Origin: an uncultured virus (IMG/VR IMGVR_UViG_3300024432_002033)
Taxonomy: Duplodnaviria; Heunggongvirae; Uroviricota; Caudoviricetes
Strand: one strand, 5' to 3'
Virus record (IMG/VR): IMGVR_UViG_3300024432_002033
DNA: 64,000 nucleotides
The notes beneath the pieces are model-generated. The model saw nothing but the letters and a program-made list of their open reading frames with translations. It did no database searches and was not told where the DNA came from. Made by a program: the position numbers and the translations under genes. Positions 1 through 55,213 of the stretch are shown here, in pieces (the stretch's first letter is position 1; every line of letters starts with the position of its first letter).

Positions 1-204
1 ATGACTGAAGAAACTAAGGCCAAGATCCTCAAGGTTTTCGAGGATGCCTATCCTCAAGATCTCTCAATCAGTGAGGTCTCTAGAAGGGCTCAGTTTTCCG
101 AGGTGACTGGTGCCACTTATGTGAGGATACTAGAGGCTGAGGGTAAAATCGAGTTCGCTAGGTTAGTTGGAAGGGCAAAGATGTTCAAGTTGAAACGTGT
201 ATAA
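1..204 (+). CDS. small winged-helix DNA-binding protein
   Basis: 67 aa with HTH 'LSISEVSRRAQFSEVTGATYVRILEAEGKI' and a wing. Confidence 0.75.
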   Translation: MTEETKAKILKVFEDAYPQDLSISEVSRRAQFSEVTGATYVRILEAEGKIEFARLVGRAKMFKLKRV

Positions 205-454
205 ATCTTAACGAGTCGAAGGTCGATGAGCCGTCCTAAATTCATGATCCCTCGGCCTCCATAATCGATTCCGTCTCCTTCCTCAGCGATGGCGTCGCGC
301 GCACGCTGGGTCGAGATGTCATTAGGATTGAGGATTGGATAAGAGTTGGATCTCCACATTTAACGACCTCCCACTCACCCAAACATGGGTTCCATTTTTA
401 TCATCCCCCACTTGCGCCTTACTCGTGACCGACTCCCTCAACTGCCGTCCTTGT

Positions 455-1704
455 AGGCGTAAGGTCCTAGCTGATCTTTAAGAACTCGTATGCGTGATCT
501 TAATGTTTTATCGGACGTACAGGTATCGGCTGTATCCAAGCAAGACTCAGACGATGATTCTGGAAGAGCAGCTGGAGCTGTGCAGGGCGGTCTATAATCT
601 TTTACTTAATTATTGCAAGCAACAATACAAGGAGACGGAAAGAACTCCAACAGAGTTTGACTTGAATAATCTTCTCGTCACCATGAAACGGCTGAGACCT
701 GAGATATCCCCAGTCTTTTCCCAGGTTCTCCAGAACATCGCCAAACGGATCAGGAGCGCCTACACGGGGTTCTACGCTAGGCGCAGAGCGGGATTGAAGG
801 CTGGCCTCCCCCGATTCAAAAAGCATGGGCGATACAAGAGTATCACCTATCCTCAGCGTGGTTTCAAGATTGAAGGGAATAGGTTGATTCTCTCCAAGAT
901 AGGGAACATACGGATAAGGCAGCACAGGGAGCTCCCGGAGAAGACCAAGACCCTCACGGTCAAGCGGAATCCCTCGGGGAGGTGGTATGCCTGCTTCAGC
1001 TGCATAGTGGAAGCCCAGCTCAGGGAGAAGCCCCTCGAGGATGTGGGAATAGACGTGGGGCTCCACAGCTACGCGGTGCTCAGCGACGGAACCAAGATTG
1101 AGAACCCCCGGTTTTACAGGGAGTCGGAGAAGAGACTGGCCCACCTGCAGAGAGGGATGTCACGAAAGGAGAGGGCGAGCCGGAACTGGGTCAAGGCGAA
1201 AGCCAAGGTATCTCGGCTCCACGGGAGAATTGGGAACCGGAGAACCGACTTTCTACACAAGAAATCAAGGAAGATAATGGACACCTATGGAACCGTATAC
1301 TTTGAAGATTTAAAGATCAGAAACATGGTCAGGAACCACTGTTTCGCCAAGTCGATAAGCGATGCTGGCTGGGGACGTTTCATCGGGATGATAGCCTACA
1401 AGGCTGAAAGTGCTGGAGGCAGAGTCATCCAGGTGAACCCCAGAAACACCACCCAGACATGTTCTCGATGCGGAGAACGGGTAAGTAAAACCCTATCCGA
1501 TAGAATCCATGAGTGCCCATCTTGTGGGTTGGTGATGGACAGGGATCTGAATGCGGCGCTCAACATCCTCGCGAGAGGACGAGAGATACGGCGGGAACCG
1601 CCGGAATCTAGGCCTGTGGAGGACAAGGCCACTACACCATCTACAATGGTGCAAGCCTATCCAGCGAAACAGGAAGCCTCCCTACTTGTAGGGAGGTAGT
1701 TCAC
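455..1704 (+). mobile_element. IS200/IS605-family (IS1341-type, tnpB-only) element
   Basis: tnpB followed by right-end hairpin GAAG-CCTCCCTAC TT GTAGGGAGG-TAGTTCAC ending at 1704; left end inferred after TTGT (451-454); no tnpA. Confidence 0.75.
494..1699 (+). CDS. tnpB: RNA-guided endonuclease TnpB (start may be ATG 503)
   Basis: YRYRLYP N-terminus, RuvC residues GIDVG / FEDL / DRDLNAA, CxxC-CxxC zinc finger. Confidence 0.95.
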   Translation: MILMFYRTYRYRLYPSKTQTMILEEQLELCRAVYNLLLNYCKQQYKETERTPTEFDLNNLLVTMKRLRPEISPVFSQVLQNIAKRIRSAYTGFYARRRAGLKAGLPRFKKHGRYKSITYPQRGFKIEGNRLILSKIGNIRIRQHRELPEKTKTLTVKRNPSGRWYACFSCIVEAQLREKPLEDVGIDVGLHSYAVLSDGTKIENPRFYRESEKRLAHLQRGMSRKERASRNWVKAKAKVSRLHGRIGNRRTDFLHKKSRKIMDTYGTVYFEDLKIRNMVRNHCFAKSISDAGWGRFIGMIAYKAESAGGRVIQVNPRNTTQTCSRCGERVSKTLSDRIHECPSCGLVMDRDLNAALNILARGREIRREPPESRPVEDKATTPSTMVQAYPAKQEASLLVGR

Positions 1705-2831: not shown

Positions 2832-4395
2832 TCAGCTCCCGAACGGCGTGACGCCTTCCGGAGGCTCACGGTACTTGCCTCCCCGGATCCTACGCAGCGA
2901 CATCTCCACGTATTCGGGCACAATGTCTATTCCGATGAAGCGCCTGCCGAGGCGTCGCGCCACCCTGAGAGCGGTCCCGCTGCCACAGAAGGGATCGAAG
3001 ACAACACCTCCAACCCACGGCTCTCCACATCCGCAGTCAGACCAGCCGACCGTGACATATTCTGCATCGAGGACCTTATCGTAGCGCATGCCTCTCTTCA
3101 GGTCATCCTTATGATTATGAACGGACTTCCCGAGGCTCTCAGCATATCTAGGAGATGGCTCGGAGATCCGCGTCCTTGCCTCTCCACACTTACTGCATAC
3201 CCACCTAGGACAACCAGCCTTCACCATAGGCTCAACGAGACTCGGAGGAAACGTGGAGAAATGAGCCGCGGGAAACGGCATAGTCGGGACGCTCCATAAA
3301 TCCGCGGGGTTCTTCCCTCGTGGATCATGTTCCTTCACATGAAGCGGGTCGGCGTAGCTGCGATCACTCCTTCCCACCGCTATCTCATGTTTCGTCAATT
3401 CTTCCTCAACATCACCGAATTTACGGGATAGGCCTCGGGCTATGTCGATAGGCCTGTTAGCGTTACGGGATTCAGACCTCTCCCCCCTGAGAGCCAGCGT
3501 CTTAGGGCCACCCGGCTGATTTTCGATATTTTTCTGCCTGATCCTCAGCAATGTCCCTTTTGAGAGGGGCTTCCTGATCGCGTCGAGGTCGAAATAGTAC
3601 CGCCTCTGCTTGACGAACAGGAAGACGTGCTCATAGGAATTGGTGAGCCTGTCTTTCACGCTTGAAGGCATGTGGTTTTTTTTGTACCAAATTAGATCAT
3701 TTCTTAGGGTCCAGCCATCGTGTTGGAGGGCGATGGCTACTCGCCAGGGGATTCCGAGAAGCTGCTTGGGCTGAAGCCAGTTGGAACGAGACTTGGAGGA
3801 TTGTCGATAGTGGGCTGGTTGCCCCTTGTCGGGCATGAACTTCTCATATTGCCCGCCTTTACCACCTGAGCCATAGTAAGTATCTCCGAGATTGAGCCAA
3901 AACGTGGCCCCTGGCTTCAGAACCCGTTTGATCTCCCGGCATATTCCCACCATGTGATCCACGTACATCTGTGGGTGGGGTTCGAGTCCGAGGCTGCCCC
4001 GCCAGGCCCCGCATTCAGAGCAGAGTTGGCCGGCTTCGGAGGGATGATGTTTCTCAGCGATTGTAACCTTCTTGTGTCCACCCCCGATATAGTCCTCCTT
4101 AGACCTCTCGGCGAACCCTATGTTTCTATGGTCATCTTTTGCAGCTGGGAGCGATTCCCCCCATTCATGTTCACATTCAGGGAGGCCTCCCCAAATCCGA
4201 ACCGAATCGGTGCCATAGTCGCGGAGGCCCCATTCCACGAAGTGAGGATAATCCTCGACGTTATCCTCGACTTCTATATGGTGGGCTCGTGACCACGCAG
4301 TCGACGAAGTCGGCGGGCATGCGCCGCATTAGGTCTACGCAGTCTCCGCAGAGAACTTGGTTGTGCCAGTCCAGGGCCTCACCTCCTAACCTCAT
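2832..4395 (-). CDS. N4-C/N6-A DNA methyltransferase (beta class), split by an intron: exon 1 4395 (or CTG 4374)..4276, exon 2 4232..2832
   Basis: exon 1 NQVLCGDC...VDCVVTSPPY; exon 2 WGLRDYG...LNLGD...DPFCGSGT; GGAGGTG SD before CTG 4374; Cys-rich insertions. Confidence 0.9.
4233..4275 (-). other. 43-nt bulge-helix-bulge-type intron in mRNA
   Basis: AGAAGTCGAGGATAACGTCGAGGATTATCCTCACTTCGTGGAA; central helix CCAU/GUGG, bulges AU^A and AA^U, inner stem GAAGU-GAGGAUAA/UUAUCCUC-ACUUC. Confidence 0.85.
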
Positions 4396-6693: not shown

Positions 6694-7020
6694 TCAGTTC
6701 TCCTTGTAGAACTGGAGAGCCTCATTGAGCGAGTCGACGAGATGACGGGTCCCGAGTTTCACCAAGGTTATCGAACTGTATAACTTCTCATCGCCCTTAT
6801 CGCGCTCATCGCGCTTTTTGTAACCTAATTCCAATCCCTGAATAACGTATTCTCGGGCGTCCTCGAACTCCTCTTGAGAGTCGTACTCTCCCTCGAGGGC
6901 CTTTATCCAAAACAAGGTCTCTCCGCCCATTGGGGTGAAGGTATCCACGAAAATCGTTAATGGCTCATGGGTGATTGGATCAGTCACCGTGAAGAGCTTG
7001 CTGTAATTTTCAGTGGCCAT
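6694..7020 (-). CDS. hypothetical protein, first gene after promoter repeat A
   Basis: 108-aa ORF. Confidence 0.65.
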   Translation of the reverse strand: MATENYSKLFTVTDPITHEPLTIFVDTFTPMGGETLFWIKALEGEYDSQEEFEDAREYVIQGLELGYKKRDERDKGDEKLYSSITLVKLGTRHLVDSLNEALQFYKEN

Positions 7021-7025
7021 CTAAC

Positions 7026-7097
7026 TTCGATAAAACGAGTTCTGGCTTTCGTACTCCCCTTTTAAGGTTTACTCTAGTTTGGTTCGTATCTGCGAAC
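7026..7097 (-). promoter_or_regulatory. promoter repeat A, copy 1
   Basis: GTTCGCAGATACGAACCAAAC...CTTAAAAGGGGAGT...CGTTTTATCGAAG. Confidence 0.75.
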
Positions 7098-23539: not shown

Positions 23540-26500
23540 ATGGTCTCCAGGTCCGTCGTCAGAACGATCAATGAGCTTGCTTTCACGCAGTACATTGCTC
23601 GGCGAAATTGGAGGGCGGTTGGCAGGATCTGGCTCTGGTACTGGGACGGCACGAACATCGTCTATCAGTCAAGGCCAGCAGGTGGAGGGTCTTGGACGAG
23701 CCCGGAAGCCGTGAGATCCTGTAACGCCGCTCTTGAATTTGCGACCTGGTTTGATGGAACATACTTCCATTACGCATACTCCCAAGGACAATTGAGTACC
23801 CCGGATACCACCGTGTTTTACCGTCGTGGTCTGGCGAATGCAGATGGAAGTATAACATGGTCCGCAGCGGAGCAGACGGTTCAAGCTCATCTCTCTTCTT
23901 ATAGGCGAAGAAACCTGTCCATCTGCGTTGACGATGGTGGCTATCCATGGATTGCATGGCATAGATCTTTGAGGACCGGCTCCGCCAACTATTATCCTTT
24001 TGTGACTACATCTTCAACCAATGACGGAACTTGGACAACTGCCACGGGTTATCCCTTTCAGGTCATAGGCAACACTGTGTCGTGGTATGTGAGCCTCGTT
24101 CCCATGACGAGCGGAAAGGTGATGCTCTTTTACGGCGGAAATTGGCGCCTCTATGGGCGGGTCCTCACCGCCGTCTCCAAAGGCAGTCAGACTCTTATCT
24201 CCGGTTATCAGGTGAGTAACCGGCAGCTTCGGCATAACGCAGTAGCAATCGGTGACATCGTTTACCTCTGCTATCAATGGGGCACAGCCGCCATCAGATT
24301 CCAAGTATATAATGGAGGCTGGGGCGCGATCTCAACTCCGGTTACACCCGCGGATCGACCGGGGCTCCTGGCGAAAAAGGACGATTCAACCCTAATGCTA
24401 TTCTGGGAGAACGCTGCAAGCATCATCAAGTACAAGGAATACACGATTTCAGGGGGATCGTGGGGAAGCGAAGAGACCCTCCAAGACGAAACCACGGACA
24501 CAATCCTTTCTTGGAGCGTTATGCAGGCATCCTATGATGGAGGGGGGCGCCCATTCCTGCATTACGCCACGAAGGCGGGCGCTCCCTATGACATGATCTT
24601 CGCGGAGTGGGAACCTCCCCATGCGGACCTGCTAGGCGAGTTTGTGGTCACCCAGTGGCAGGAGGACCTCCCCGCTTCATTCCACGTCGGCCAAGATTCC
24701 GCTGAGCTTCGGGGCAATGTCGGTATCAGACATGCGGGCACTCCAATTGAGCTGCTGGGCAACGCGGTCACCAGACATGTGGGCACACCAGTCGAATTAC
24801 TTGGCAACGCAGTTCTCAGACAGCCGGGCTCCGCTGAGCTGCTGGGCAAGGTCGACGTGGGCCAAGACTCCGCCGAGTTACTTGGCAACGCCGCTATCAG
24901 GCAACCGGGTTCCTCTGAGCTGCTTGGGAAATTCGCGGCTCAGGTCACCGCTGAGCTGCTAGGCAACGCCGAAATCAGGCAGTCGGGCCCTAAACCCTGG
25001 ATTGTCGGTTGGAACTTGCGGAAATCGCATACGATTACAGGAAGCGTTGCTGGAGCTCAAACCAATTATCCCATAGGCATAAAGTTTTATTATGGCTCGG
25101 GGACAGATGGCACCGAGACTATCGGCGGAGCCACCTTCGGGAAGGTTTACTGTGACTCAAAATGCCGGACCGACTTCGGGGATATCCGGTTCACCAAATC
25201 TGATGAAACCAGTCTACTCGACTTTTGGATAGAAGAACAAGTAAATAGTGATTATGCGATAATCTGGGTTGAGATCGATAGCATACCGGCGAGCCCGGGC
25301 ACGACTGACATTTATATCTACTATGGAAACGCGGGCGCTACGACGACAAGCAACGGAGACGACACATTCCTCATCTTTAATGATTGCATAACTACAACGG
25401 GTTGGTCCATACAACTTATAGTGGGCAGCCCCGCCTGGGGGACGGCTATAATGGACGGAGCGACCACGATTTACATAGAAGCCAATAACCATAACGAGAA
25501 ACTGAGAATACAATATGATACCATACTTAGCACGGGAAGAGAGAATAGGCGTGCCCTTACAAGGGTGAAACACACAAGCTGGAATGCGGATGGTTATTTC
25601 AACTGGTATACTCCTCTAATATTAGGCCCCACTCAATATGATTCTTTACGGTATTCGTCTTACTTTGATTATTACACAATATACGCATCAGTTGGTGGGG
25701 TTTCAGACACCACAAACTATAATGCGGGGCATCCAAGTGGCTGGTATAGATACGAGAAGAAAACAAATGCTGCTGGCGCGGTAACAGGGTACAGAGACGA
25801 TACTGAGCTAGGAACTGCAACGGTTGACGGCGACTATTCCGGCGGGAAGGTCACATATTATGTCAATGAATGGAACGCGGGCCTCACCAAACATTACATT
25901 GACTGGTTTGCCATAGGTAAATACGTCGACCCCGAACCCACTCACTCCACGTGGGGACCGGAAACCACCGCCGTAGGTGGTGTTCTCCCCGCCCAGTTCG
26001 ATGTCGGCCAAGACTCCGCTGATCTTCTCGGCAAGGTGGATATCACGCATTCCGCTGATCTTCTCGGCATAGTGGATATCACGCATTCCGCCGATTTGCT
26101 CGGCATGTTTGACGTCGGACAGAATGCGGTGGATCTCAAAGCAACCTTCGATGGCCAGGTCTCTTTGAATCTGCCTGCCCAATTCGAGGTGTATCATAGA
26201 AGAGCGAATCTTAAAGCACAGTTCACGATCCGTCACTCGATTCCGGGCCCAGTCGTTTTCGGTCCCATTCTAATCGAGGCAGCGACGTCAGACGCAGTCA
26301 GATTCTCCTTCCAGAGAAAGAGCTTTCGCGCATTGGGTAGGATATGGGTATTTTACACGGATGGCACAAATATCCGGGTCTCTTCTAGTAAGGATGGTTT
26401 TACATGGAAGGCCCCCGTCACAGTCAGAGTCGGGGATGATGGAGAGGACTTCAGTGTAGTGGAGCAGAATGGCTATGTCCATTACGCTTACGCCTCAAAT

Positions 26501-29300: not shown

Positions 29301-29337
29301 CGGTTTAAAAAACGGTTGCTCTACCCTTAACCATTTT
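29301..29337 (-). promoter_or_regulatory. operator B plus TATA
   Basis: AAAATGGTTA-AGGGTAGAG-CAACCGTTTTTTAAACCG. Confidence 0.75.
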
Positions 29338-29932
29338 ACTCTAGATTCAGCTTCCGCCCGCGCTGCCCGAATCCGAGAAGGACGTTGCTCCCCTGCACCA
29401 GTATTTCGGCCCGGACACTGGGCTCGACCAAGGTACACCCCAGGCCGCTAGGCGTCGCGAAGGTCTTCTCGATCAGAGGCGACTTGATGATCCCGTGCAA
29501 GCTGTCCGCGAACTCCCTCTGAAACACCTCGACCACCCCCCTCCTCCCACCATCGATACGGCGGGCCTTGATGCCCTCCGCCGCCTTCCTATGTACCTCG
29601 AAGAATTCGACCAGCGTGTTACATGTCCTCGGATCCATCGAGAATTGGCATTGGATGGGGGGCTCGCTGTCCTTAACATAGCACCCCAGGATCCGCTTTA
29701 GGGTCTCCGCAGCTGAACCCGACCCCGCGCCGCGGCCCATCATCATAAAGTCGACGCTCGCCTCGGTGCCGACGAAGAAGTCCTCGACAAACGGGGACTT
29801 CTTGATGGTCATCGTCCTGCCCCTGACGACGCGTTCGACGCTGGTTATCAGCTCGGAGTCCACTTCGTGGGGATAGACGTCGGCGTCAGTTAGGGTGGAT
29901 CCGTCGCGCAGGTGGATCATCCATAGAGGCAT
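29336..29932 (-). CDS. hypothetical protein
   Basis: 198 aa from MPLWMIHLRDG. Confidence 0.6.
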   Translation of the reverse strand: MPLWMIHLRDGSTLTDADVYPHEVDSELITSVERVVRGRTMTIKKSPFVEDFFVGTEASVDFMMMGRGAGSGSAAETLKRILGCYVKDSEPPIQCQFSMDPRTCNTLVEFFEVHRKAAEGIKARRIDGGRRGVVEVFQREFADSLHGIIKSPLIEKTFATPSGLGCTLVEPSVRAEILVQGSNVLLGFGQRGRKLNLE

Positions 29933-29957
29933 GTCGAGAAGAGTAAGTTTTTTCGGC

Positions 29958-30575
29958 CTAATAAAGGGTCGCGCGTGCGCCACATATGCGTGGCCTGTAA
30001 GCGACGCTCGTGCGCGAAACGCTCCCATCCAGATCTCCCAGAAAGACCAGGATATGGTCCGACGGCTCGAGATCCCAGTCAAGGATCTCGGATTGATTAC
30101 GGTTGGAGCGGGGACGCCGCTTCGTGCAGTTCATGTGACTGCGGAGGTAGACCATGTCGAAGATCCGCTGTCTCGTCCATTTCCGAGGTCCATTCCACGA
30201 GGTCATGGCCTTCACCTCCTCGAAGATCTGAAGGGCATATTCCCAGATCAGGAAATCTTGGTATTTTTTAGAATACCATTTTAACGGTGCGAATAGCTCG
30301 GCCAATTTGCGGCATTGCCCCACGCCACGCACGGTTAACAGTAAGGATTGGTTTCGTTTCAATCGGTTTTTTCTTTTGTATCCATCGTCGTTAAGAAGAG
30401 TTTTGACACCGTGTTTTTTGAACAGCTGCCCCATCGTCTCAAGAAGGGACCTATCCCCCTCATGCAGGGAAACAGCAAACCTCGGTCTGAGATACCATCC
30501 AGCCCGATTCCGGGTGATCGCTATGAAGAAACTCCCCTCACCCTCAAGAAAAGCCAGTGCCCACATGAGATCCAT
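29958..30575 (-). CDS. single-motif LAGLIDADG homing endonuclease
   Basis: WALAFLEGEGSF motif, LRPRFAVSL, KKYQDFLIW. Confidence 0.9.
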   Translation of the reverse strand: MDLMWALAFLEGEGSFFIAITRNRAGWYLRPRFAVSLHEGDRSLLETMGQLFKKHGVKTLLNDDGYKRKNRLKRNQSLLLTVRGVGQCRKLAELFAPLKWYSKKYQDFLIWEYALQIFEEVKAMTSWNGPRKWTRQRIFDMVYLRSHMNCTKRRPRSNRNQSEILDWDLEPSDHILVFLGDLDGSVSRTSVAYRPRICGARATLY

Positions 30576-38807: not shown

Positions 38808-38880
38808 GGTCCCGAAATACGAACCAAACACACGTAAACCTTAAAAAGGGAGTTCGAAAACCTGAACCCGTTTACTGAGG
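38808..38880 (+). promoter_or_regulatory. promoter repeat A, copy 4 (diverged)
   Basis: ATACGAACCAAACACACGTAAACCTTAAAAAGGGAGTTC...GAACCCGTTT. Confidence 0.75.
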
Positions 38881-38883
38881 TAC

Positions 38884-39669
38884 ATGAGGAATATCCTATT
38901 TATCTGCCTCGATAGCGCCCGATACGACACATTCGAGGCCTCCGATGCTGGAAATATGAAGTCTATGGGCGCCCTCAAGAAAGTGCATTCTACAGCGGGC
39001 TGCACTGCCCCGTCCATGGTCGCATACCTCTCCGGTTCTCCTCCGTTTGGGACAGGGCGTAGGGATCTTTTCCGCCGAGGAGCGGAGGGACAATATTCGT
39101 GGGCCCCGAAATTTTTCTCCGAGCTAGGCTGGGCGACGGCCTGGCTCTCCAGCAATCCGAGGATGCTAGCGCTGGATTCGGGTTTATCCGGTGGATTCAG
39201 ACGTCATTTCAAGCATTTCAAATCGATAGGATATCTGAAGAGATTCGTCCGCGACGGTTTCATCGTCCATGTTGATGGCCTTGGGCCGGGACATTTTTCG
39301 GCCACGCCCGAAATCGTAGCCGATGTCGAAGAAATCATGATGATGGAAGAGGGCCGCTCCGTCTTCATGACTATTTTGGCGATGGACACGCATACCCCGT
39401 ATAACTTCGCTGAGGGTTGCTGTGATATCGATCCAGAAGATCCGGATAAGAACTTCAGAAACCAGGTCAGAGCCATTGAGTACTTTGACGGTTTCTTCCC
39501 AATGATAGTAGATCAATTCAGAGGAAGGGGTAAGACGGATGTCATTATCACAGCTGATCATGGAGAATTATTCGGGCCAGGTTATTGGAGTCATGGCTCG
39601 ACTGCACTCCATGTCAAATTTGACGAGAAACTGTATGAGATTCCCTTCATAGTCGGCGAGATTTCGTGA
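38884..39669 (+). CDS. sulfatase/alkaline-phosphatase superfamily enzyme
   Basis: ICLDSARYD, CTAPS, THTPY, TADHGE. Confidence 0.85.
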   Translation: MRNILFICLDSARYDTFEASDAGNMKSMGALKKVHSTAGCTAPSMVAYLSGSPPFGTGRRDLFRRGAEGQYSWAPKFFSELGWATAWLSSNPRMLALDSGLSGGFRRHFKHFKSIGYLKRFVRDGFIVHVDGLGPGHFSATPEIVADVEEIMMMEEGRSVFMTILAMDTHTPYNFAEGCCDIDPEDPDKNFRNQVRAIEYFDGFFPMIVDQFRGRGKTDVIITADHGELFGPGYWSHGSTALHVKFDEKLYEIPFIVGEIS

Positions 39670-48856: not shown

Positions 48857-48885
48857 TTTAAAAAACGGTTGCCTTGTGCTTAACT
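48857..48885 (-). promoter_or_regulatory. operator B plus TATA
   Basis: AGTTA-AGCACAAGG-CAACCGTTTTTTAAAA. Confidence 0.7.
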
Positions 48886-51800
48886 ATTCGAAGTTTGCCT
48901 TGACATCGTGAATGAATGGGGTTTTGGTTTCGGGTGGATCGTATTTACTAGCGGGGTCGGCTTTCTTGATGATTCGTGGTTTGTAGATCCATACTTTCTC
49001 GGCGTCGCCGATTTGATTTTGCCATTCTTCGTCACTCATCCCGTGCTCGCTACGCATCTCCGTCTTGACTTTGGCAGCGTCATAGGGACCCTCGGGGTAT
49101 CCTTCCACGTAGAGACCGAGGACATCGGTCTCGCTGAGGAGGTAGATAGCCTGTTTCGCATATTCCGAATAGGGCTTAGCCCGCACTATCATTATCCGTT
49201 TTCCCTCGAGCAGATCCTTGGCCACGGGGGTGGGATGTCTCGCCCCTGGGGCGGAGCCTCCTAAACTTATCTCGGCCCCATCGAAGAGTGCCTGGGCATT
49301 GGGCGCCATCTCTCGGAGGACATCGTCGAGGTCTGCGTGAGTCTTTCCTACGTGGCCTATCTGCGTGAAGTAGATCCGTGGGATCTCGGTTTCCTGCGCC
49401 CACTTGATCTGTTTCTCGATACTGGTATGACCGAAGGGAGTTTTCCCTCCACGTTTCTGCACGATCTCGCGTTTCAGCGAGGCCCCGTCTCCAATGAATA
49501 TGTCGACGTCCTTGAGCACCTTCTTATAGTTGGGGATCCTGTAGACATCGCTACAATGCCAGAGGACCTTGGAGCCCATATTGATCCTGAAGCCGAGGGC
49601 CTTCGGATCTCCGGGTTTCGCGTGCTGTACCTTCACGCCCTTCACCGTAAAGGGTCCCAACCGGAAAGGTCGATCTTTGATAACGTATCGCTTGAAGGGA
49701 TAGATATCCTCGAATCTGCCCTTCTCGCCACTTAAATCTCTATAGTGCCTCCTTAGGTAATCCCATGCCGGCTTCGTTGCGAAGACCACGGGATTCAGTG
49801 GCCTTAGCTCGTGAAGGCCTCCCATGACATCGTCGTGCACATGCTCGAGCAGGACGTAATTTGGCTTGACCTTCTTCAGACCAAGCATTCCAGATATGCC
49901 CTTTGGAGCGTTAACGAGCAGGTGCTCATTTCCGATGCTGAGGAGCGTCGCCGTGTGGTTGCGCTTGCTCTTTCCACCCGCTCTGGCCTCCTTGCACTGG
50001 GGGCAATCGTCCCTCGGTATGTCGGTAAATGCTCCTGTGCCAAGGGCGGTTATGGTGGCGCGACCCCCAAACTTCCTGACCTGATCATCCCTTATCATGC
50101 GGAGCTGACGGGCCTCCTCGAGGCTTCTTCTGGGGATATCCGCTTTTTCCATCCACATTTCTACAGTGCTGCGTGGGCGGCCTATTTCATCGGCTAGATC
50201 TTGGGTACTCCTGCCTATCCTCCAGTATTCCTGGTTTAGGTACTCCTCGAGGGGTAGGCCGAATTTGAAAACTTGTCCGGGCGAGACCTTGATCTGACCC
50301 ATGACAGCTGCGTCGATGTTGCAGGTGGCGCAGGCTCCCTTTGGCACTGCGCTCAGGCCAATGCACTTCCCGCCGATGACGTGATCATGTTTGTGCTCGG
50401 CATCCCATATGGTTTCGGGTATGACCTCGATGCTGAAGTCGGGGAGCTTCTTCTCGAGTATGAGCTTGATTCCCATCGGATGCCAGATGATCCCCTGATC
50501 TATGACGCCCCAGCCCTTCCCCTCGTCGTAATGAAGTTTGTTGACGAAGCCAATCACGTCGCCCTTCAGGTCGCCGTGCATAGCCACGATCGGCTGTCTG
50601 TGCATGGAGGGCCAGAATTTCTTTATACCACTGGCGGTGAAATAGGCGGGCTTGCCGTCCATGCCTATGACCTCACCCGGCTTGATGCCCACGCCACCAA
50701 TGAATAGGAGCTCCCCGACAAGCTTGGAGCTAATGTCTGCGGCTGCGAGATGTATAATATTTGGCGAGCTGAGAAGCATCTCTTTCTTTGGTTTCGGTAG
50801 CTCCGACTTCTGGAAGATCCACATTTCACCGCTTGGATCTTCCTTCATGAAGACGTAGAGGCCCTTCAGTCTCTTGCCGTCTAGCTTGGATCGGACGAAG
50901 TTATTGCTATCAGCTATGATCTGAACGCTACCCGAGTCGCTGGTATCAAAGTGGTTTTTCAATCGCTTCGTTAGGCTGGCTGGGTGGCCGGCGGGTATAT
51001 CTCCTGTAGTCGCTATCAGATCCTCAAGCCCTCGTCCGCTCTTTCTCCTAGCAGTTATCCGGTCTTCCTCAGTAGGATCGTGGCTCTGACCGAAGTCCCA
51101 TGCATCGAGCACTTTTTTCCCATCATGGATTATGATCCAGTATCGGACTATGGGGACTCCCCGCACCACTTCGGGGCCTTTGTGCCAAACTCGTTTGACG
51201 GCGAATCTCAGACCTCTCCGTAGTTTGATCGGGACCTGGCGTTTCCTCATCGCCTCGACGAGGTCGTCCCTCACTTTCTTGGAATTGAGTTTTTGCCAGT
51301 ACTGATATTCCTCAGGAATCTGTTGCCTGATCTCCTTCGGTATCGCCGATATTCCCTTCGGCGGCATCCAGCCCCTGTCCACGGCACGCTTCGATATAGT
51401 ATATGGTCTCTCCATCGGCTTGCCCCTGAAGGTCATCCATGCGAAGGGCTGCTTAATCTGCCACTTCGGCCTAGTCGCTAGGCGCCTAACGAAGAATCTT
51501 CCGTTGAGATGCTTGCCGTGGAGGAAGTACTCATGATAATACGTTTTCTGTGCGCCGTATTCGATTGTGCCCTCATCCATTATCACGAATTGGCCTTCGA
51601 GCTCCGCGGTGGCTCCGACTGCTCCCGCCGGGATCTCGCCTTCGTAATCCAGCCATTCATGAGGCTCCGGAGCCTTCCTCTGGGTGAGAATCTTCCTTTT
51701 TGGATCTTTGAGTATGGGTTCGACTTCCTCGCGCCAGAGTTCCCAGCACATCGTCCTCAGCTGTTTCGGGGTGAGGTCCTGGGTTTTCAGTGAGAGGGCC

Positions 51801-54800
51801 TTCCTGAGCTTCTTGCCCTCAGTGGTGGAATTCAGCTTTGCCGAAATTTCGCTGATCGTCATTGAGCCGATCTGCTGTTTCGTCAGTCCGACCTGGGCGA
51901 GGATTGCGGGCTTTACCCTTCTCAGCATCGGCTTTATGAGGCTCTTGCCGAGGTCCCATGTCCATCCGATCAATTGGGTCTTACTTATCTCTGCTCTGAA
52001 GTCCGCGTGAACGCTCAATCCCCTGATGTGGAACTGAAGGACGAATTTCCAAATCTTGTTCTCATCCGGGTAAGTGAGGTAAGGATCGCCAAGAAGCATC
52101 GGCTTCTCTAAATGTATGAGGGCGCCGCAGTCCAGTTTCAGATGAGGAATTGGTTTGCATCTAATTGAAGCGTAGAACGCTCTCAGCTCGCTAACATTGA
52201 CAGCGATCTCCGAGGGCAGATCCGGCTCTTCCAAGAACGCTGATGTCCCTCCCTCTATCGTAGCGCCCTCTTCGCAATGGAAGATCATGCCCTCCTCGAT
52301 CAGGCCCTCTAATAGCTCGCGGGTTATGCTCGTGCCAGTGATCGATTCTACGCCCTCTTCCCTGAGTTTCACCCAAGGGGACTCATTGTTGAGGAAATAG
52401 TCCCAGCCTCCTGCCTTCGAGAGGGCAATCCAAGATGACGAAGAGGAGGAGAGCGTCGATTCGAACCCATAGCGAGTGTCCACGAAGTAAGCCTGGGGCT
52501 CCGCCATCCGCTTCAAGCCCGTCTTTCGGATCGTCTCGGCGGTCCGGAGGGAATCTGGCGTCGTCTTATCCTCCCTGACTTCGAGGACTGAAGGGTGGAA
52601 CCAATGATAGACATTGGGGGCTATTTTCCGGATGTTAGCCACCTTCACGCGGAGAATGTCGCCGAGGCCCGCCTTCAACTTCGTGTTGAAGGTCTTCCCG
52701 AGGACGCTGTAGGTCTTGCCCTTGTATTTCACGAATTTCTTGCCCTTCGCCGTCTCAAGAGGTGCAGATTCGGCCTCCTTCACGCCACTGACTGGCCCTA
52801 TGGCGCAAATGTAATTCACGACATCGGGCGGTAGCTTGGGAGGCTTGATGATACCGACAACGATCGGATCTATTTCGAATGTCCTCTTCATCTTGGACCA
52901 CAGCGGGGTTCTTCCGCTGAGCCTGTACTTTGAATCTGCCTGTTTGTACATGGCACCCTCGCTGCCACGGACGTTGGCTACCTGATTCGAGGCCTTCACC
53001 ATCTGCTCCGCGCTGGTCGCCCAGTGGATGTTGTTTTCCCATAGGTGATTGCGGAAATCGTCCTTCTTCTTGGGTAAATCTCTAACGGGGAGCTCTACTC
53101 CTCGGAGCCGCTGTCTTCGCTCCTCATATGGAAGGTCGTGGATATCCTCTCCGTCAATGTACAGGAGGTCGAAGACATGGGCAACCCAGAGGCTGTCGTC
53201 AACGGGTTTCTTAGCTCCCTTCGCGAAGGCCGGTGCCGCGAGGGCGGGGGCTGCGCCGGGTCTTCCGAGGGTGCGAAGTTCCTCGTCGTAGGGTGTTATC
53301 TCCGAGTCGAAAACTGCTTCCTTGACGGGCAGACTTTTGACGGAGGCTGTGATTCCAGGAATCCTCTCCTCGACGGAATGTCCACCTTCCGTGAAGATCT
53401 TTACTTCGTCGCCTTTCCTGTGAATCTGGACTCGGAAACCGTCGAATTTCACCTCAATAGCCTGCTTGTTGGGTACCTTGAAGATGCCTTTGGCTAGGGC
53501 AGGCACTGACTTTAGACCGAAGACCTCGCGCTCGGCGTAGCCCTTCTTGGTTGTCTTGAGCTGGGCGAAGGGATACAGGACATCGACACGCTTACGCTTC
53601 GTCATAAGCTTGAAGCGAGTATCAGCCTTCATATCCTCCCATTCGCCGGAATCAACTAGTTTCTTTATCTCCTCATCGGAACCTGCGGTGAGTTCCAGTT
53701 TCTCCACATTGAAAAGATTCCAATTGGGCTCATCTGAAACCATGTAATGTGAGGATCCCGGGATTACAATATAGTCGCGATCTCCGCCCCGAAGGAAGTC
53801 AACTGTGTCCCGTCTGTCGTTGAAGAATCGGTATAGGGATGGTCTGAGGTGGGGGCTCTCGGGCAACTTTAGCATAAAGACGCGCCGGGTTTCCGCTGAT
53901 AACTGGATCAGCTCTGTGCCCCGCCACCAGGGCATATCAATCATGTGGAATACCGGTCGATCATCGACTTTAGAAAGAAAGCCGTCGATTATGAAGGATT
54001 TCGGATCTTCTATGGATCCAACGGCTTCGATTACCGGATCGGGGAGGGCATACTCATCGCCGTCCTTGTCGAACGCGGTGACTTCGGGTCCGTCACGGTG
54101 AATTGCTAACCTCACGCCCCTGATCGGCTCGATAAAATAGGTATCCTCGGCCAGATCGCAAACGTCATCCAGGCTCGTGGCCGTTGGCAATGGGAAACCC
54201 GCGAGGGGACTGAGCTTGTATTCCGGCTGCTTCACCGAGAGATCTTTCTTCGGGATCGCCCACAGCTCATATCCGGGTATATAGGGTCCAGTGGGGCCGA
54301 TCTTCGACCATATGATGCTATGCTTATCCCTCAGCTCCAGGGGCATCGTACTGAGATAGTTATCATCCCATACGCCTACTCCGCCACTGCGGAAAACCAC
54401 ATCCACATCTCGGGGTGCCTGCTTATCGGATACGGAGCTTCCGACGTAGTCGATGAATTCAGGATCAATCAGGAAGGCCTTTCGGCTCTTAAGGACCTCC
54501 TGGAAGGTTGGGCTCATCAGCTGCATGACGCTGAATGCAAGGGGGCTCTTATGGTCGAGACCACGCCGACCAAATTCCTCTACATAGATTTTATGGAGTT
54601 TTTCGAGTTGCTCGCGGCTCAAGAAGAGCTTCTTTTTGTCCACGAGAGCCTTCGCCCACAAGTGGATCCACCGATGATCGTCGATGATGGACGAATCTGA
54701 ATCTTTTCTGATCGTTGCAGGCGTCTTCAGGATGGCGTTTGCATGTTGCTTGGTAAGCAACCTCAGGACAGGCATGAGTGCTTTTGAGCCAAATTTAAGG

Positions 54801-55213
54801 GGGGTATTATGTTTGAGGCCGCGTTCCTTGAATTCACTGACATAAATGCTGTGAAGGGTTCTCAATTGACGCCTCGAGAGCGGGGGCTTCTCGGCTTTGA
54901 CCCACGCATGGGTCCATCTGTGATCGTCGACGACCCGGTCCCTCGAATCACTTTTCAAGAGCTCGGGGTTATCGAGGAGATTCAATGCATGTTCCTCGGT
55001 GAGAAGGCTCATGATACCCGTCGTCTCACCCAGATAGAGGGCGAAGAGAGCTTCCTCGTTGCCCGCAAACATGGAGATTGAGGGATCCTCACCCTCGATC
55101 TTCTCCTCAATCCATTTGCAATAGGCATGTGGATCTGTGGGGGGGTTCTTCCTGTGGCTAACCACTCTGACGCAGTGTGAATGACTCTTATACGGTCCAA
55201 ACGGCATTATCAT
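48884..55213 (-). CDS. polyprotein: NTase-like, ATP-dependent DNA ligase, LigD-type phosphoesterase, prohead protease, HTH, MBL hydrolase, ASCH-like
   Basis: VGSS..DVDV; EVKFDGFR, FDLLY, EGAMYK, WSKMK; FVLQFH..HADFR; AMHG..FSIE..GLSAV..GA; HVHDD, SDVY, GHTS. Confidence 0.85.
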   Translation of the reverse strand: MIMPFGPYKSHSHCVRVVSHRKNPPTDPHAYCKWIEEKIEGEDPSISMFAGNEEALFALYLGETTGIMSLLTEEHALNLLDNPELLKSDSRDRVVDDHRWTHAWVKAEKPPLSRRQLRTLHSIYVSEFKERGLKHNTPLKFGSKALMPVLRLLTKQHANAILKTPATIRKDSDSSIIDDHRWIHLWAKALVDKKKLFLSREQLEKLHKIYVEEFGRRGLDHKSPLAFSVMQLMSPTFQEVLKSRKAFLIDPEFIDYVGSSVSDKQAPRDVDVVFRSGGVGVWDDNYLSTMPLELRDKHSIIWSKIGPTGPYIPGYELWAIPKKDLSVKQPEYKLSPLAGFPLPTATSLDDVCDLAEDTYFIEPIRGVRLAIHRDGPEVTAFDKDGDEYALPDPVIEAVGSIEDPKSFIIDGFLSKVDDRPVFHMIDMPWWRGTELIQLSAETRRVFMLKLPESPHLRPSLYRFFNDRRDTVDFLRGGDRDYIVIPGSSHYMVSDEPNWNLFNVEKLELTAGSDEEIKKLVDSGEWEDMKADTRFKLMTKRKRVDVLYPFAQLKTTKKGYAEREVFGLKSVPALAKGIFKVPNKQAIEVKFDGFRVQIHRKGDEVKIFTEGGHSVEERIPGITASVKSLPVKEAVFDSEITPYDEELRTLGRPGAAPALAAPAFAKGAKKPVDDSLWVAHVFDLLYIDGEDIHDLPYEERRQRLRGVELPVRDLPKKKDDFRNHLWENNIHWATSAEQMVKASNQVANVRGSEGAMYKQADSKYRLSGRTPLWSKMKRTFEIDPIVVGIIKPPKLPPDVVNYICAIGPVSGVKEAESAPLETAKGKKFVKYKGKTYSVLGKTFNTKLKAGLGDILRVKVANIRKIAPNVYHWFHPSVLEVREDKTTPDSLRTAETIRKTGLKRMAEPQAYFVDTRYGFESTLSSSSSSWIALSKAGGWDYFLNNESPWVKLREEGVESITGTSITRELLEGLIEEGMIFHCEEGATIEGGTSAFLEEPDLPSEIAVNVSELRAFYASIRCKPIPHLKLDCGALIHLEKPMLLGDPYLTYPDENKIWKFVLQFHIRGLSVHADFRAEISKTQLIGWTWDLGKSLIKPMLRRVKPAILAQVGLTKQQIGSMTISEISAKLNSTTEGKKLRKALSLKTQDLTPKQLRTMCWELWREEVEPILKDPKRKILTQRKAPEPHEWLDYEGEIPAGAVGATAELEGQFVIMDEGTIEYGAQKTYYHEYFLHGKHLNGRFFVRRLATRPKWQIKQPFAWMTFRGKPMERPYTISKRAVDRGWMPPKGISAIPKEIRQQIPEEYQYWQKLNSKKVRDDLVEAMRKRQVPIKLRRGLRFAVKRVWHKGPEVVRGVPIVRYWIIIHDGKKVLDAWDFGQSHDPTEEDRITARRKSGRGLEDLIATTGDIPAGHPASLTKRLKNHFDTSDSGSVQIIADSNNFVRSKLDGKRLKGLYVFMKEDPSGEMWIFQKSELPKPKKEMLLSSPNIIHLAAADISSKLVGELLFIGGVGIKPGEVIGMDGKPAYFTASGIKKFWPSMHRQPIVAMHGDLKGDVIGFVNKLHYDEGKGWGVIDQGIIWHPMGIKLILEKKLPDFSIEVIPETIWDAEHKHDHVIGGKCIGLSAVPKGACATCNIDAAVMGQIKVSPGQVFKFGLPLEEYLNQEYWRIGRSTQDLADEIGRPRSTVEMWMEKADIPRRSLEEARQLRMIRDDQVRKFGGRATITALGTGAFTDIPRDDCPQCKEARAGGKSKRNHTATLLSIGNEHLLVNAPKGISGMLGLKKVKPNYVLLEHVHDDVMGGLHELRPLNPVVFATKPAWDYLRRHYRDLSGEKGRFEDIYPFKRYVIKDRPFRLGPFTVKGVKVQHAKPGDPKALGFRINMGSKVLWHCSDVYRIPNYKKVLKDVDIFIGDGASLKREIVQKRGGKTPFGHTSIEKQIKWAQETEIPRIYFTQIGHVGKTHADLDDVLREMAPNAQALFDGAEISLGGSAPGARHPTPVAKDLLEGKRIMIVRAKPYSEYAKQAIYLLSETDVLGLYVEGYPEGPYDAAKVKTEMRSEHGMSDEEWQNQIGDAEKVWIYKPRIIKKADPASKYDPPETKTPFIHDVKANFE

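Follow-up and report, generated by a model that had tools for sequence, protein, structure and literature searches.

How could a virus make an active enzyme from a gene whose catalytic motif is split by a stop codon and a frameshift? The question is raised by a DNA methyltransferase (methylase) gene on the minus strand of the IMG/VR record IMGVR_UViG_3300024432_002033, an uncultured virus. The stretch that we analysed, hereafter the window, is 64,000 nucleotides (nt) long and, to judge from its Pfam content, is apparently part of a tailed-virus genome. The gene carries a 43-nt insert between the codons for its SPPY and WGLRDYG motifs. We conclude that this insert very probably belongs to a real family of bulge-helix-bulge (BHB) introns in virus methylase genes. 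We also consider it fairly likely that, in an archaeal host, an EndA-type endonuclease and an RNA ligase remove the insert from the messenger RNA (mRNA).

The minus strand reads ...GTC ACG AGC CCA CCA TAT, then the 43 nt (4275 to 4233), then TGG GGC CTC CGC GAC TAT GGC. This confirmed a preliminary description of the locus as VVTSPPY, 43 extra nucleotides with a TAA and a frameshift, and WGLRDYG. The gene is laid out as follows.

4276..4395, minus strand: exon 1 of the DNA methyltransferase, 40 codons (MRLGGEALDWHNQVLCGDCVDLMRRMPADFVDCVVTSPPY), ending in SPPY, with a predicted start codon
4233..4275, minus strand: candidate BHB intron, 43 nt, with an identical copy in metagenome locus L102
2832..4232, minus strand: exon 2, 466 codons (4232-2835) and a stop codon (2834-2832), starting WGLRDYG, with FDPFCGSGT near the C-terminus

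The insert adds a TAA stop (4263-4261) after RSRG in the exon-1 frame and, because 43 mod 3 = 1, a +1 frameshift. In the list of open reading frames (ORFs) the gene appears as two minus-strand entries, one at 4261..4395 (44 aa, ending VVTSPPYRSRG and a stop) and one at 2832..4238 (468 aa) with a GTG start inside the insert (MEWGLRDYG...). The longer product had been said to lack the catalytic motif, and indeed it matches PF01555 (N6_N4_Mtase; 127.1 bits, E 1.2e-36, curated cut-off 26.7 bits) only from position 26 of the 221 in the profile, because the upstream ORF, in exon 1, encodes the beginning of the domain, SPPY included. We take (S/D)PPY to be the catalytic motif, which a protein without SPPY would lack, and FxGxG, here DPFCGSGT, to be the S-adenosylmethionine-binding motif. 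With SPPY in exon 1 and DPFCGSGT in exon 2, the two come together in one polypeptide only when the insert is removed.

The borders of the insert are given by protein homology. Exon 1 aligns with residues 6-34 of an uninterrupted homologue, P0003 (E 2e-11), and exon 2 aligns with the same protein from residue 35 (W35) onwards at 76% identity. Since the two alignments meet between Y34 and W35 of P0003, the junction is exact to the residue, and excising 4233-4275 therefore restores the catalytic motif with no residue gained or lost. Among the best 120 of 2761 homologues, 102 have [ST]PP[YF] within their first 120 residues, and those that were read carry an unbroken SPPYWGLRDYG. The 18 without the motif comprise seven that start (M/V)EWGLRDYG, one that starts MVW, one that starts VSRDW and nine that start downstream or elsewhere. 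The (M/V)EWGLRDYG start of the seven is the same artefactual start as that of the window ORF; one of them, P0002, appears to be the product called at L102 and has the same protein start.

We explored the structure of the insert by folding the minus-strand region 4215-4295. Its minimum free energy (MFE) was -32.4 kcal/mol as compared with -21.3 ± 2.9 kcal/mol for 200 dinucleotide shuffles, none of which was as stable (z -3.79). The MFE structure consists of a GCCC/GGGC outer helix, an A opposite AAUG, a CCAU/GUGG helix, an AUA bulge and a hairpin. Its elements are listed here from 5' to 3', with the columns that they occupy in the alignment used for covariation.

4282..4286, minus strand: 5' strand of the outer helix (GCCCA), in exon 1 over the Ser-Pro codons; GCCC pairs with GGGC and the A faces a G; columns 10-14
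4278..4281, minus strand: 5' strand of the central 4-bp helix (CCAU), a Pro codon and the first base of the Tyr codon; columns 15-18
4275..4277, minus strand: 5' bulge AUA, unpaired in both the MFE and the RNAalifold structure and invariant in 9/9 sequences; predicted cut 4276/4275
4239..4274, minus strand: inner hairpin, with 5' arm 4274-4261, 9-nt loop 4260-4252 and 3' arm 4251-4239
4235..4238, minus strand: 3' strand of the central helix (GUGG), in the intron; its GUG is the gene callers' start for the truncated ORF
4232..4234, minus strand: 3' bulge AAU, unpaired together with the next G (MFE and RNAalifold); predicted cut 4233/4232
4227..4231, minus strand: 3' strand of the outer helix (GGGGC), in exon 2 over the Trp-Gly codons

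The inner hairpin has 13 bp (5+8) with one bulged C. According to the passages of PMC5829648 cited here, a BHB is defined by two 3-nt bulges and a 4-nt helix at the exon-intron boundary, and the catalytic tyrosine of the endonuclease is placed at the 2'-OH of the second bulge nucleotide. The window insert has this arrangement at its exon-intron borders, with the 3' side relaxed. The fold originally put forward, with two 3-nt bulges and an A-G mismatch in the outer helix, was returned by the MFE prediction; the mismatch, which relaxes the 3' bulge, follows AAU in the window family, and the L052 and L153 families have a U-G pair there. The cuts predicted from the structure, 4276/4275 and 4233/4232, coincide with the borders that protein homology gave independently. 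Cutting after the second base of each bulge had been predicted to yield PYWG, which matches the P0003 junction, and the cleavage position agrees with the cited passages of PMC5829648.

An assembly error had been named as a concern. An identical copy of the 43 nt is present in L102, a locus of another metagenome record, and positions 4005-4290 are covered continuously by a DNA contig that comes from a run of a different study; the insert is therefore real DNA.

To look for related inserts, IMG/VR and a metagenome collection were scanned for the WGLRDYG codons preceded by any codon other than Tyr, a design that leaves out the ordinary intron-less SPPY-W alleles, so that no frequencies can be read from the counts. 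At least 164 loci matched, and 63 of the 164 have a methylase-like downstream ORF by BLASTP, a count that leaves out loci shortened by contig ends, such as L058. At least ten metagenome loci, and 0 of 45 IMG/VR pattern loci, carry 30-43 nt at exactly the junction of the window.

L102: insert of 43 nt, identical to that of the window
L088: insert of 31 nt
L058: insert of 30 nt
L123: insert of 30 nt
L141: insert of 32 nt
L052 and L119: inserts of 32 nt each, identical to one another
L134: insert of 32 nt
L103: insert of 41 nt, the L052 type with a 9-nt duplication
L153: insert of 33 nt

Together with the window, these loci hold nine distinct insert sequences in three families, the hairpin bodies of which are unrelated. 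The 4-bp helix and the 3-nt 5' bulge are found in the MFE structures of 9/11 loci, the exceptions being L123 and L153. The window intron holds GTCGAGGAT twice as a direct repeat 12 nt apart and is therefore 12-13 nt longer than its relatives of 30-32 nt; the 9-nt duplication that distinguishes L103 from L052 (CTGGCAAGG) lies in the same arm. Judging from these sequences, tandem duplications in the 5' arm seem to account for the variation in intron length.

Covariation was measured in a MAFFT alignment of the nine sequences over 14 pairs, namely five outer, four central and the first five inner ones; deeper inner pairs were left out because their registers differ among the three families. Of the 126 cells, 95.2% were paired, as compared with 76.1 ± 2.7% in shuffles, and 0 of 500 shuffles reached the observed value. 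When the partners were slid by 1-3 columns, pairing was 34-58% (maximum 57.9%). The covariation score was 0.540 against 0.184 ± 0.036 in shuffles (again reached by 0/500), and the slid controls scored 0.196 or less. Both sides changed in 6 of the 14 pairs. The outer helix (columns 10-14/66-70) was 88.9% paired and the central helix 97.2%, while the first five inner pairs were 100% paired, with changes on both sides in four of them. Two pairs involve codon bases directly. Pair 17-60, between an intron base and the wobble position of the second Pro codon, is AU in five sequences, CG in three and UA in one; pair 10-70, which joins the first base of the Ser codon with the Gly wobble base, is CG in six and GC in three. 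RNAalifold, supplied with no structure, arrived at the same elements, namely the outer and central helices, the 3-nt bulge and the inner helix. The comparison of homologues called for at the outset thus came out in favour of the BHB: intron-less alleles are contiguous at the junction, and the nine distinct inserts keep the fold by covariation.

The stop codon and frameshift in the insert could also mean that the gene is dead or crippled. The insert would then be a palindromic mobile or repeat element in a pseudogene, which would yield at most an inactive C-terminal protein from the GTG at 4238. The truncated form is indeed the one annotated by gene callers, as the seven (M/V)EWGLRDYG homologues attest, and the internal tandem duplications in the introns of the window and of L103 relative to L052 are of the kind seen in sloppy repeats. 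Selection on the gene argues otherwise. The ratio of nonsynonymous to synonymous substitution rates (dN/dS) in exon 2 is 0.108 between the window and L102 (dS 0.46), 0.103 between the window and L088 and 0.107 between L102 and L088; across the intron-bearing alleles compared, dN/dS is thus about 0.10 at a dS of 0.46-0.86. Exon 2 is under purifying selection. The downstream ORFs are long and intact, being open for 390-473 aa in L052, L102, L119 and L123, and exon 1 is conserved and in frame up to SPPY in 11/11 loci. A dead gene would leave unexplained why the ends of the insert covary with exon bases and why three unrelated insert sequences at one site each have the same bulge geometry. Its product, without SPPY, would presumably lack the catalytic motif, and in 4/11 loci there is no start codon from which to make it before the W. 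We regard a dead or crippled gene as quite unlikely.

Those start codons also bear on a split enzyme, in which the 44-aa exon-1 peptide and an exon-2 protein translated from the GTG in the insert would assemble with no RNA or ribosome trick. Exon 1 has its own stop, which lies 3-8 codons into the insert in 11/11 loci in the exon-1 frame, and a GTG is present two codons before the W in 6/11. However, no ATG, GTG or TTG occurs between the last stop and the Trp codon in L052, L119, L123 (where TAA directly precedes the W) and L153, and therefore re-initiation cannot rescue exon 2 in these four of the 11 loci. Moreover, the GTG is inside the central helix and has no Shine-Dalgarno sequence at a working distance, and the conserved bulge geometry and the covariation would go unexplained. 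A split enzyme is thus highly improbable.

The junction is also occupied by much shorter inserts. At least 44 loci in IMG/VR and the metagenomes carry 3-18 nt at the same Tyr-Trp junction, in 19 distinct sequences (examples among L004-L167 are L006, L007, L012, L014, L038, L041, L057, L067, L080 and L082). A stop directly follows the Tyr codon in eight types and Tyr-Trp in 11 types (TGG-stop-N0-4-TGG). The lengths cover all residues mod 3, and the downstream methylase ORFs are open for hundreds of codons where sequence exists. Several types recur with different flanks, and the 18-nt type contains the Shine-Dalgarno-like AGGGGAG; the short inserts are incapable of forming a BHB. A stop flanked by matched TGG...TGG codons is the classical signature of ribosomal hopping, and from their sequences the short inserts look like programmed ribosomal hopping or frameshifting in phage methylase genes. 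Our literature search found no paper on bypass in phage DNA methylases or on short inserts of this kind, and in the recoding review the sole mention is of a yeast tRNA methyltransferase.

Because the same junction carries these hop-like inserts, translational bypass is a serious rival explanation for the long inserts as well. The mRNA would keep the 43 nt, and the ribosome would take off at the Tyr codon, slide with the aid of the hairpin and land at Trp, which would work in a bacterial host. Ribosomal bypass is known from phage T4 gene 60 and from mitochondrial 'byp' elements, and the gene 60 type is defined by take-off and landing codons that match and by a stop immediately following take-off. 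A stable hairpin does start right after the would-be take-off codon, several of the named relatives of window proteins are bacterial, and 11/19 of the short types, none of them BHB-capable, have both the matched TGG codons and the immediate stop. The long inserts have neither: their take-off UAU does not match the triplet before Trp, which is GAA (GCG in L153), and 2-7 codons are read after Tyr before a stop is reached. Bypass would provide no reason for bulges exactly 4 bp apart, or for borders that equal the EndA cut positions, in three unrelated sequences. Neither would it assign a role to the covariation of the Pro wobble base with the intron base 2 nt before the 3' border. For the long inserts we therefore hold bypass to be unlikely.

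The two kinds of insert suggest that the SPPY-WG junction is, in general, a hotspot for elements whose expression depends on non-standard decoding. Its Pro-Pro (CCNCCN) and Trp-Gly (UGGGGN) codons complement each other by nature and hence offer a ready-made outer helix. We tentatively raise a joint scenario, which we think possible though doubtful, in which mobile tRNA-type mini-introns have colonised archaeal viruses at this hotspot at least twice, while bacterial viruses carry coding gaps of 3-18 nt that are hopped or frameshifted. An anti-restriction methylase would in the former case have been made dependent on host EndA and RtcB; in the latter, the viruses with short gaps, which start with a stop codon, would probably be bacterial. 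Both kinds of insert may persist by breaking a conserved DNA target of homing nucleases or host defence, or by throttling a toxic enzyme.

For the long inserts, structure, exact borders, covariation and selection all lend good support to the BHB reading, and we propose the following mechanism for their removal. The Pro-Pro-Tyr codons of exon 1 would find their pairing partners in the Trp-Gly codons of exon 2 and at the intron's 3' end, giving an outer helix and, with a bulge on either side, a central helix of 4 bp, while the body of the intron would form a hairpin. The host splicing endonuclease EndA would cut after the second base of each bulge, and an RtcB-type ligase would join window position 4276 to 4232. 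The joining would restore a contiguous catalytic motif and the reading frame and would probably release a circular 43-nt intron. As the unspliced mRNA would give only a 44-aa peptide, active methylase would be made only in a cell that has the splicing machinery, i.e., an archaeon. On this model the virus probably needs the tRNA-splicing machinery of its host to make the methylase. Such a dependence was proposed when the locus was first described; its structural basis (fold, junction and covariation) has stood, while splicing itself and the archaeal host are what we infer. The introns would form a family of at least three sequence types at one codon junction that come and go among close relatives.

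The distribution of the inserts was examined on two trees. A FastTree tree of 57 rows comprised the window and 56 of the first 60 homologues, P0038, P0044, P0045 and P0051 having been dropped for want of a W-x-L-R motif near the start. On this tree the insert state, present in seven rows, was inferred from the N-terminus; it needs at least five changes, three of which are forced by well-supported branches, and P0012, which has the insert, is sister to P0017, which is contiguous. On a second tree, built from a short alignment of 49 locus-encoded proteins, the eight BHB rows need only two changes (0/500 shuffles were as low), with seven of them in one weakly supported clade (88) and L153 apart.

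The introns themselves are more alike than the genes that carry them. Those of the window and L102 are identical at 43/43 positions at a dS of 0.46, and those of L052 and L119 at 32/32 positions while their proteins are 63% identical. The adjoining 30 nt on each side of shared introns are 100% identical as well, with identity decaying outward. That the intron is conserved better than its gene agrees with lateral spread accompanied by co-conversion of short flanks; the sign is suggestive only, because these flanks also comprise the best-conserved codons of the protein. Two features of mobile (homing) introns are thus seen, patchiness among close relatives and introns more alike than their host genes; an intron-encoded homing endonuclease is not, 30-43 nt being too short for an ORF. 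The early suggestion that the insert is a mobile intron or the remnant of one fits both the patchy distribution and the identical introns in diverged genes. The other purposes suggested early on, a regulatory switch and a shield against a homing nuclease or CRISPR, are conjectural.

Endonuclease sequences do occur near two of the introns, in neither case within them. In L058, an ORF with an HNH endonuclease match (155-967, minus strand, 39.4 bits) ends where exon 1 of the intron-bearing methylase begins. This is the layout expected if the insert shields the gene from a homing nuclease or travels with one, and the evidence is circumstantial. In L103, the BHB-bearing methylase (3-1559, minus strand) has a LAGLIDADG_3 match at ORF residues 396-447 (25.5 bits, cut-off 22.5), which is probably an intein. 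L103 and L052 are about 100% identical over some 480 nt after the intron, and identity collapses at the LAGLIDADG_3 point.

A pattern scan found methylase inserts in 0/120 of the genome-collection matches listed. The junctions examined in Thermoplasmatota were all contiguous except for one frameshift at a run of C (L295; genome G107, contig 1). There, eight C across the Ser-Pro-Pro codons shift the frame just before Tyr-Trp, which may reflect a sequencing error or else a slippery run within this same motif.

What, then, does the rest of the window say about the host? Apart from the methylase, its recognisable genes are the following, and Rfam and ARAGORN gave no matches anywhere in it.

Window: Mu-type portal, PF06074, E 6e-39
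Window: large terminase (TerL), PF03237, E 2e-5
Window: other Pfam matches, comprising a weak tail-tube match, glycosyltransferases, a ParB-like protein, TnpB and a LAGLIDADG ORF

The evidence for an archaeal host amounts to hints only and is the weakest link of this report. Ten called starts have a T-rich box, TTTT(T)A(A/T), 29-55 nt upstream, with 16 occurrences where 2.7 would be expected if the boxes were uniformly distributed. In the genes that start at 23540 (plus strand) and at 30575, 59933 and 63860 (minus strand), the box is centred about 30 nt before the start and there is no Shine-Dalgarno sequence, a layout that we read as that of TATA promoters in archaea whose mRNAs are leaderless. 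No excess of intrinsic terminators is seen (16 vs 15.9 ± 4.1). AGR accounts for 52% of Arg codons and ATA for 28% of Ile codons at about 52% G+C, which we take to be a weak sign of archaeal-like codon use. The TnpB gene (494-1699, plus strand; guided_TnpB, 338 bits) recurs, 100% identical, on another metagenome contig. There are also 120 relatives that share at least 67% identity with it, and the nearest of these to bear a name comes from a Bathyarchaeota metagenome-assembled genome (MAG; 79%). The DNA runs that contain the region are subsurface and sediment metagenomes. TerL had no match in the phage collection, and the portal is only 29-33% identical to those of Bacillus phages and has one distant relative in IMG/VR. 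Protein-cluster searches gave 'Viruses' and Cyanobacteriota clusters, and NCBIfam returned nothing diagnostic of a domain among the window proteins. The portal was not found in 401 Dehalococcoidia genomes, a search that had no positive control and so shows nothing.

Several observations count against a spliced BHB intron in an archaeal virus. With regard to structure, the 3' side in the window is not a clean 3-nt bulge, since the A faces a G and four nucleotides are unpaired opposite one, and an endonuclease of strict specificity might not accept it. In L123 the central helix contains a C-U mismatch, and L153 does not adopt a BHB as its MFE structure, though BHB pairing is available to it. A loose BHB pattern is frequent by chance, with 142 matches in the window. 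The covariation comes from nine sequences in only three families, so that there are few independent compensatory events, and its shuffle control ignores relatedness. With regard to expression, 20 sequencing runs contain the region, one of them RNA (share 0.08); the sole metatranscriptome contig covers 4535-4799, in the upstream gene and not at the junction, and no skip of the 43 nt was seen in any of the four runs mapped, DNA or RNA. With regard to the host, methylase homologues are present in 10/401 Thermoplasmatota genomes and none has a BHB insert, and a Pfam scan found neither EndA nor RtcB encoded in the window. Sigma-70-like sites are somewhat enriched (26 vs 14.7 ± 3.8). The named relatives are mixed and for the most part bacterial: the intron-less methylase P0003 (76%) is filed under a Dehalococcoidia MAG and 'viral metagenome', a portal relative (58%) under Patescibacteria and a TnpB relative (73%) under Ca. 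Desulfaltia. The bins of viral contigs are unreliable, in both directions.

Virus genes interrupted in conserved catalytic codons are familiar from the T-even phages. Their group I introns are self-splicing ribozymes of several hundred nt that are independent of host splicing enzymes. Like the insert described here, these introns and gene 60 interrupt conserved catalytic codons and are often mobile and patchy; unlike it, neither the group I introns nor gene 60, which is bypassed by the ribosome, uses a BHB. Circularisation of the TnpB omega-RNA was considered as a parallel and set aside, as it is reported not to depend on a BHB.

The closest precedent is found in the BHB introns of the crenarchaeal cbf5 pre-mRNA, which are described in the cited parts of PMC2738675 as 16-44 bp long, EndA-dependent and subject to gain and loss (Watanabe 2002; Yoshinari 2006; Yokobori 2009, the last being PMC2738675). 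As far as these sources are drawn on here, the introns of both systems are short (30-43 nt in ours), devoid of ORFs and patchy among lineages, and in both, exon and intron bases together build a BHB-like fold in a protein gene. By contrast, cbf5 is a cellular housekeeping gene in which splicing was shown experimentally, whereas the present candidate introns lie in a tailed-virus genome, split a catalytic motif and comprise three unrelated sequences at one site. A second precedent is the HVO_1309 mRNA, a non-tRNA substrate of the Haloferax splicing endonuclease; PMC7714728, in the sections cited, speaks of 'one mRNA' before adding this one. There, EndA acts on an mRNA in vivo and in vitro, but the mRNA is cellular, and restoration of a coding frame is not described in those sections.

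Likeness to the BHB introns of pre-tRNA and pre-rRNA, as these are presented in the cited portions of PMC5829648 and PMC12397907, extends to the two bulges, the 4-bp helix, the cuts at the second base and the helices h and h'. The substrate here differs in being an mRNA with no tRNA body and, in the window, in its relaxed 3' bulge. According to the same portions of PMC5829648, relaxed BHB forms are cut by (alpha-beta)2 and epsilon2 enzymes. On that basis, the window intron would need one of these broad-specificity enzymes and not a strict alpha'2 enzyme.

Small putative introns have been noted in protein genes of an archaeal virus before, namely the 12-bp inserts of a rudivirus (Peng et al., as cited in PMC2738675). 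As far as the cited part of PMC2738675 goes, those inserts keep the reading frame, have no demonstrated BHB and may be unspliced, in contrast to the present ones, which have 30-43 nt, block translation and contain a covarying BHB. This remark was the closest match in our literature search, which found no BHB intron in a virus methylase; the word 'intron' is absent from the Bathyarchaeia virus paper. Finally, splicing of the HAC1/XBP1 mRNA by IRE1 (PMC4090602, in the portion cited) likewise uses an endonuclease and a tRNA ligase to excise a small mRNA intron and change the frame, there as an expression switch; the system is eukaryotic and has a different endonuclease and stem-loop motif.

Some further elements of the window and of the scanned loci are recorded here. 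No second BHB intron was accepted in the window: 17 of the 142 loose matches join open frames of at least 40 codons, and only the one in the methylase restores a recognisable gene. A LAGLIDADG_1 ORF (29958-30575, minus strand, 41.2 bits) with its own TATA-like box overlaps, in another frame, a 248-aa ORF (29336-30082, minus strand). From their sequences the pair may be a frameshifted two-domain homing endonuclease, and no interrupted host gene was recognised around it (29336-30575, minus strand). A 2109-aa ORF (48884-55213, minus strand) between the portal gene and structural genes has an ATP-dependent DNA ligase domain (84.7 bits), a weak LigD 3'-phosphoesterase-like stretch and a metallo-beta-lactamase (MBL)-fold hydrolase domain; it is a giant repair-type protein, unusual for a virion-gene block. 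A nearly identical element of 35-40 nt, probably a promoter or regulatory box, precedes two unrelated genes, lying at about 7035-7070 on the minus strand (GTAAACCTTAAAAGGGGAGT...) upstream of 6694..7020 and at 38836-38870 on the plus strand (GTAAACCTTAAAAAGGGAGT...) upstream of 38884..39669. The scan query also matched a conserved non-methylase element, ...CTCTCCAGAGT...GGTA TGGGGCCTGAGCGATTACGGGCGT, in L051, L055, L059-L063 and many of L168-L287. The CTCTCCAGAGT element, which looks like a structured RNA or leader, is found in genomes of Rhodanobacter, Dyella and Lysobacter as well as in soil metagenomes. In L075, L090, L114, L129 and L155, a chance WGLRDYG-coding match is immediately preceded by tandem 18-nt repeats (CGGATCCTCCGCGAAGCC), which are unrelated to the methylase.

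These results have a practical consequence for annotation, in that gene callers report a truncated methylase without its catalytic motif, as has happened for seven of the best 120 homologues. The short inserts suggest that recoding of phage methylase genes is far commoner than has been recognised. Very few protein-coding BHB introns are in print, namely those of cbf5 and one Haloferax mRNA substrate, and our literature search turned up none in a virus. If the splicing reading is true, the methylase intron would represent a new kind of dependency of a virus on its host. It would also mark, from within the genome, the archaeal host range of uncultivated viruses and provide a natural test case for the spread of mini-introns that have no endonuclease of their own.

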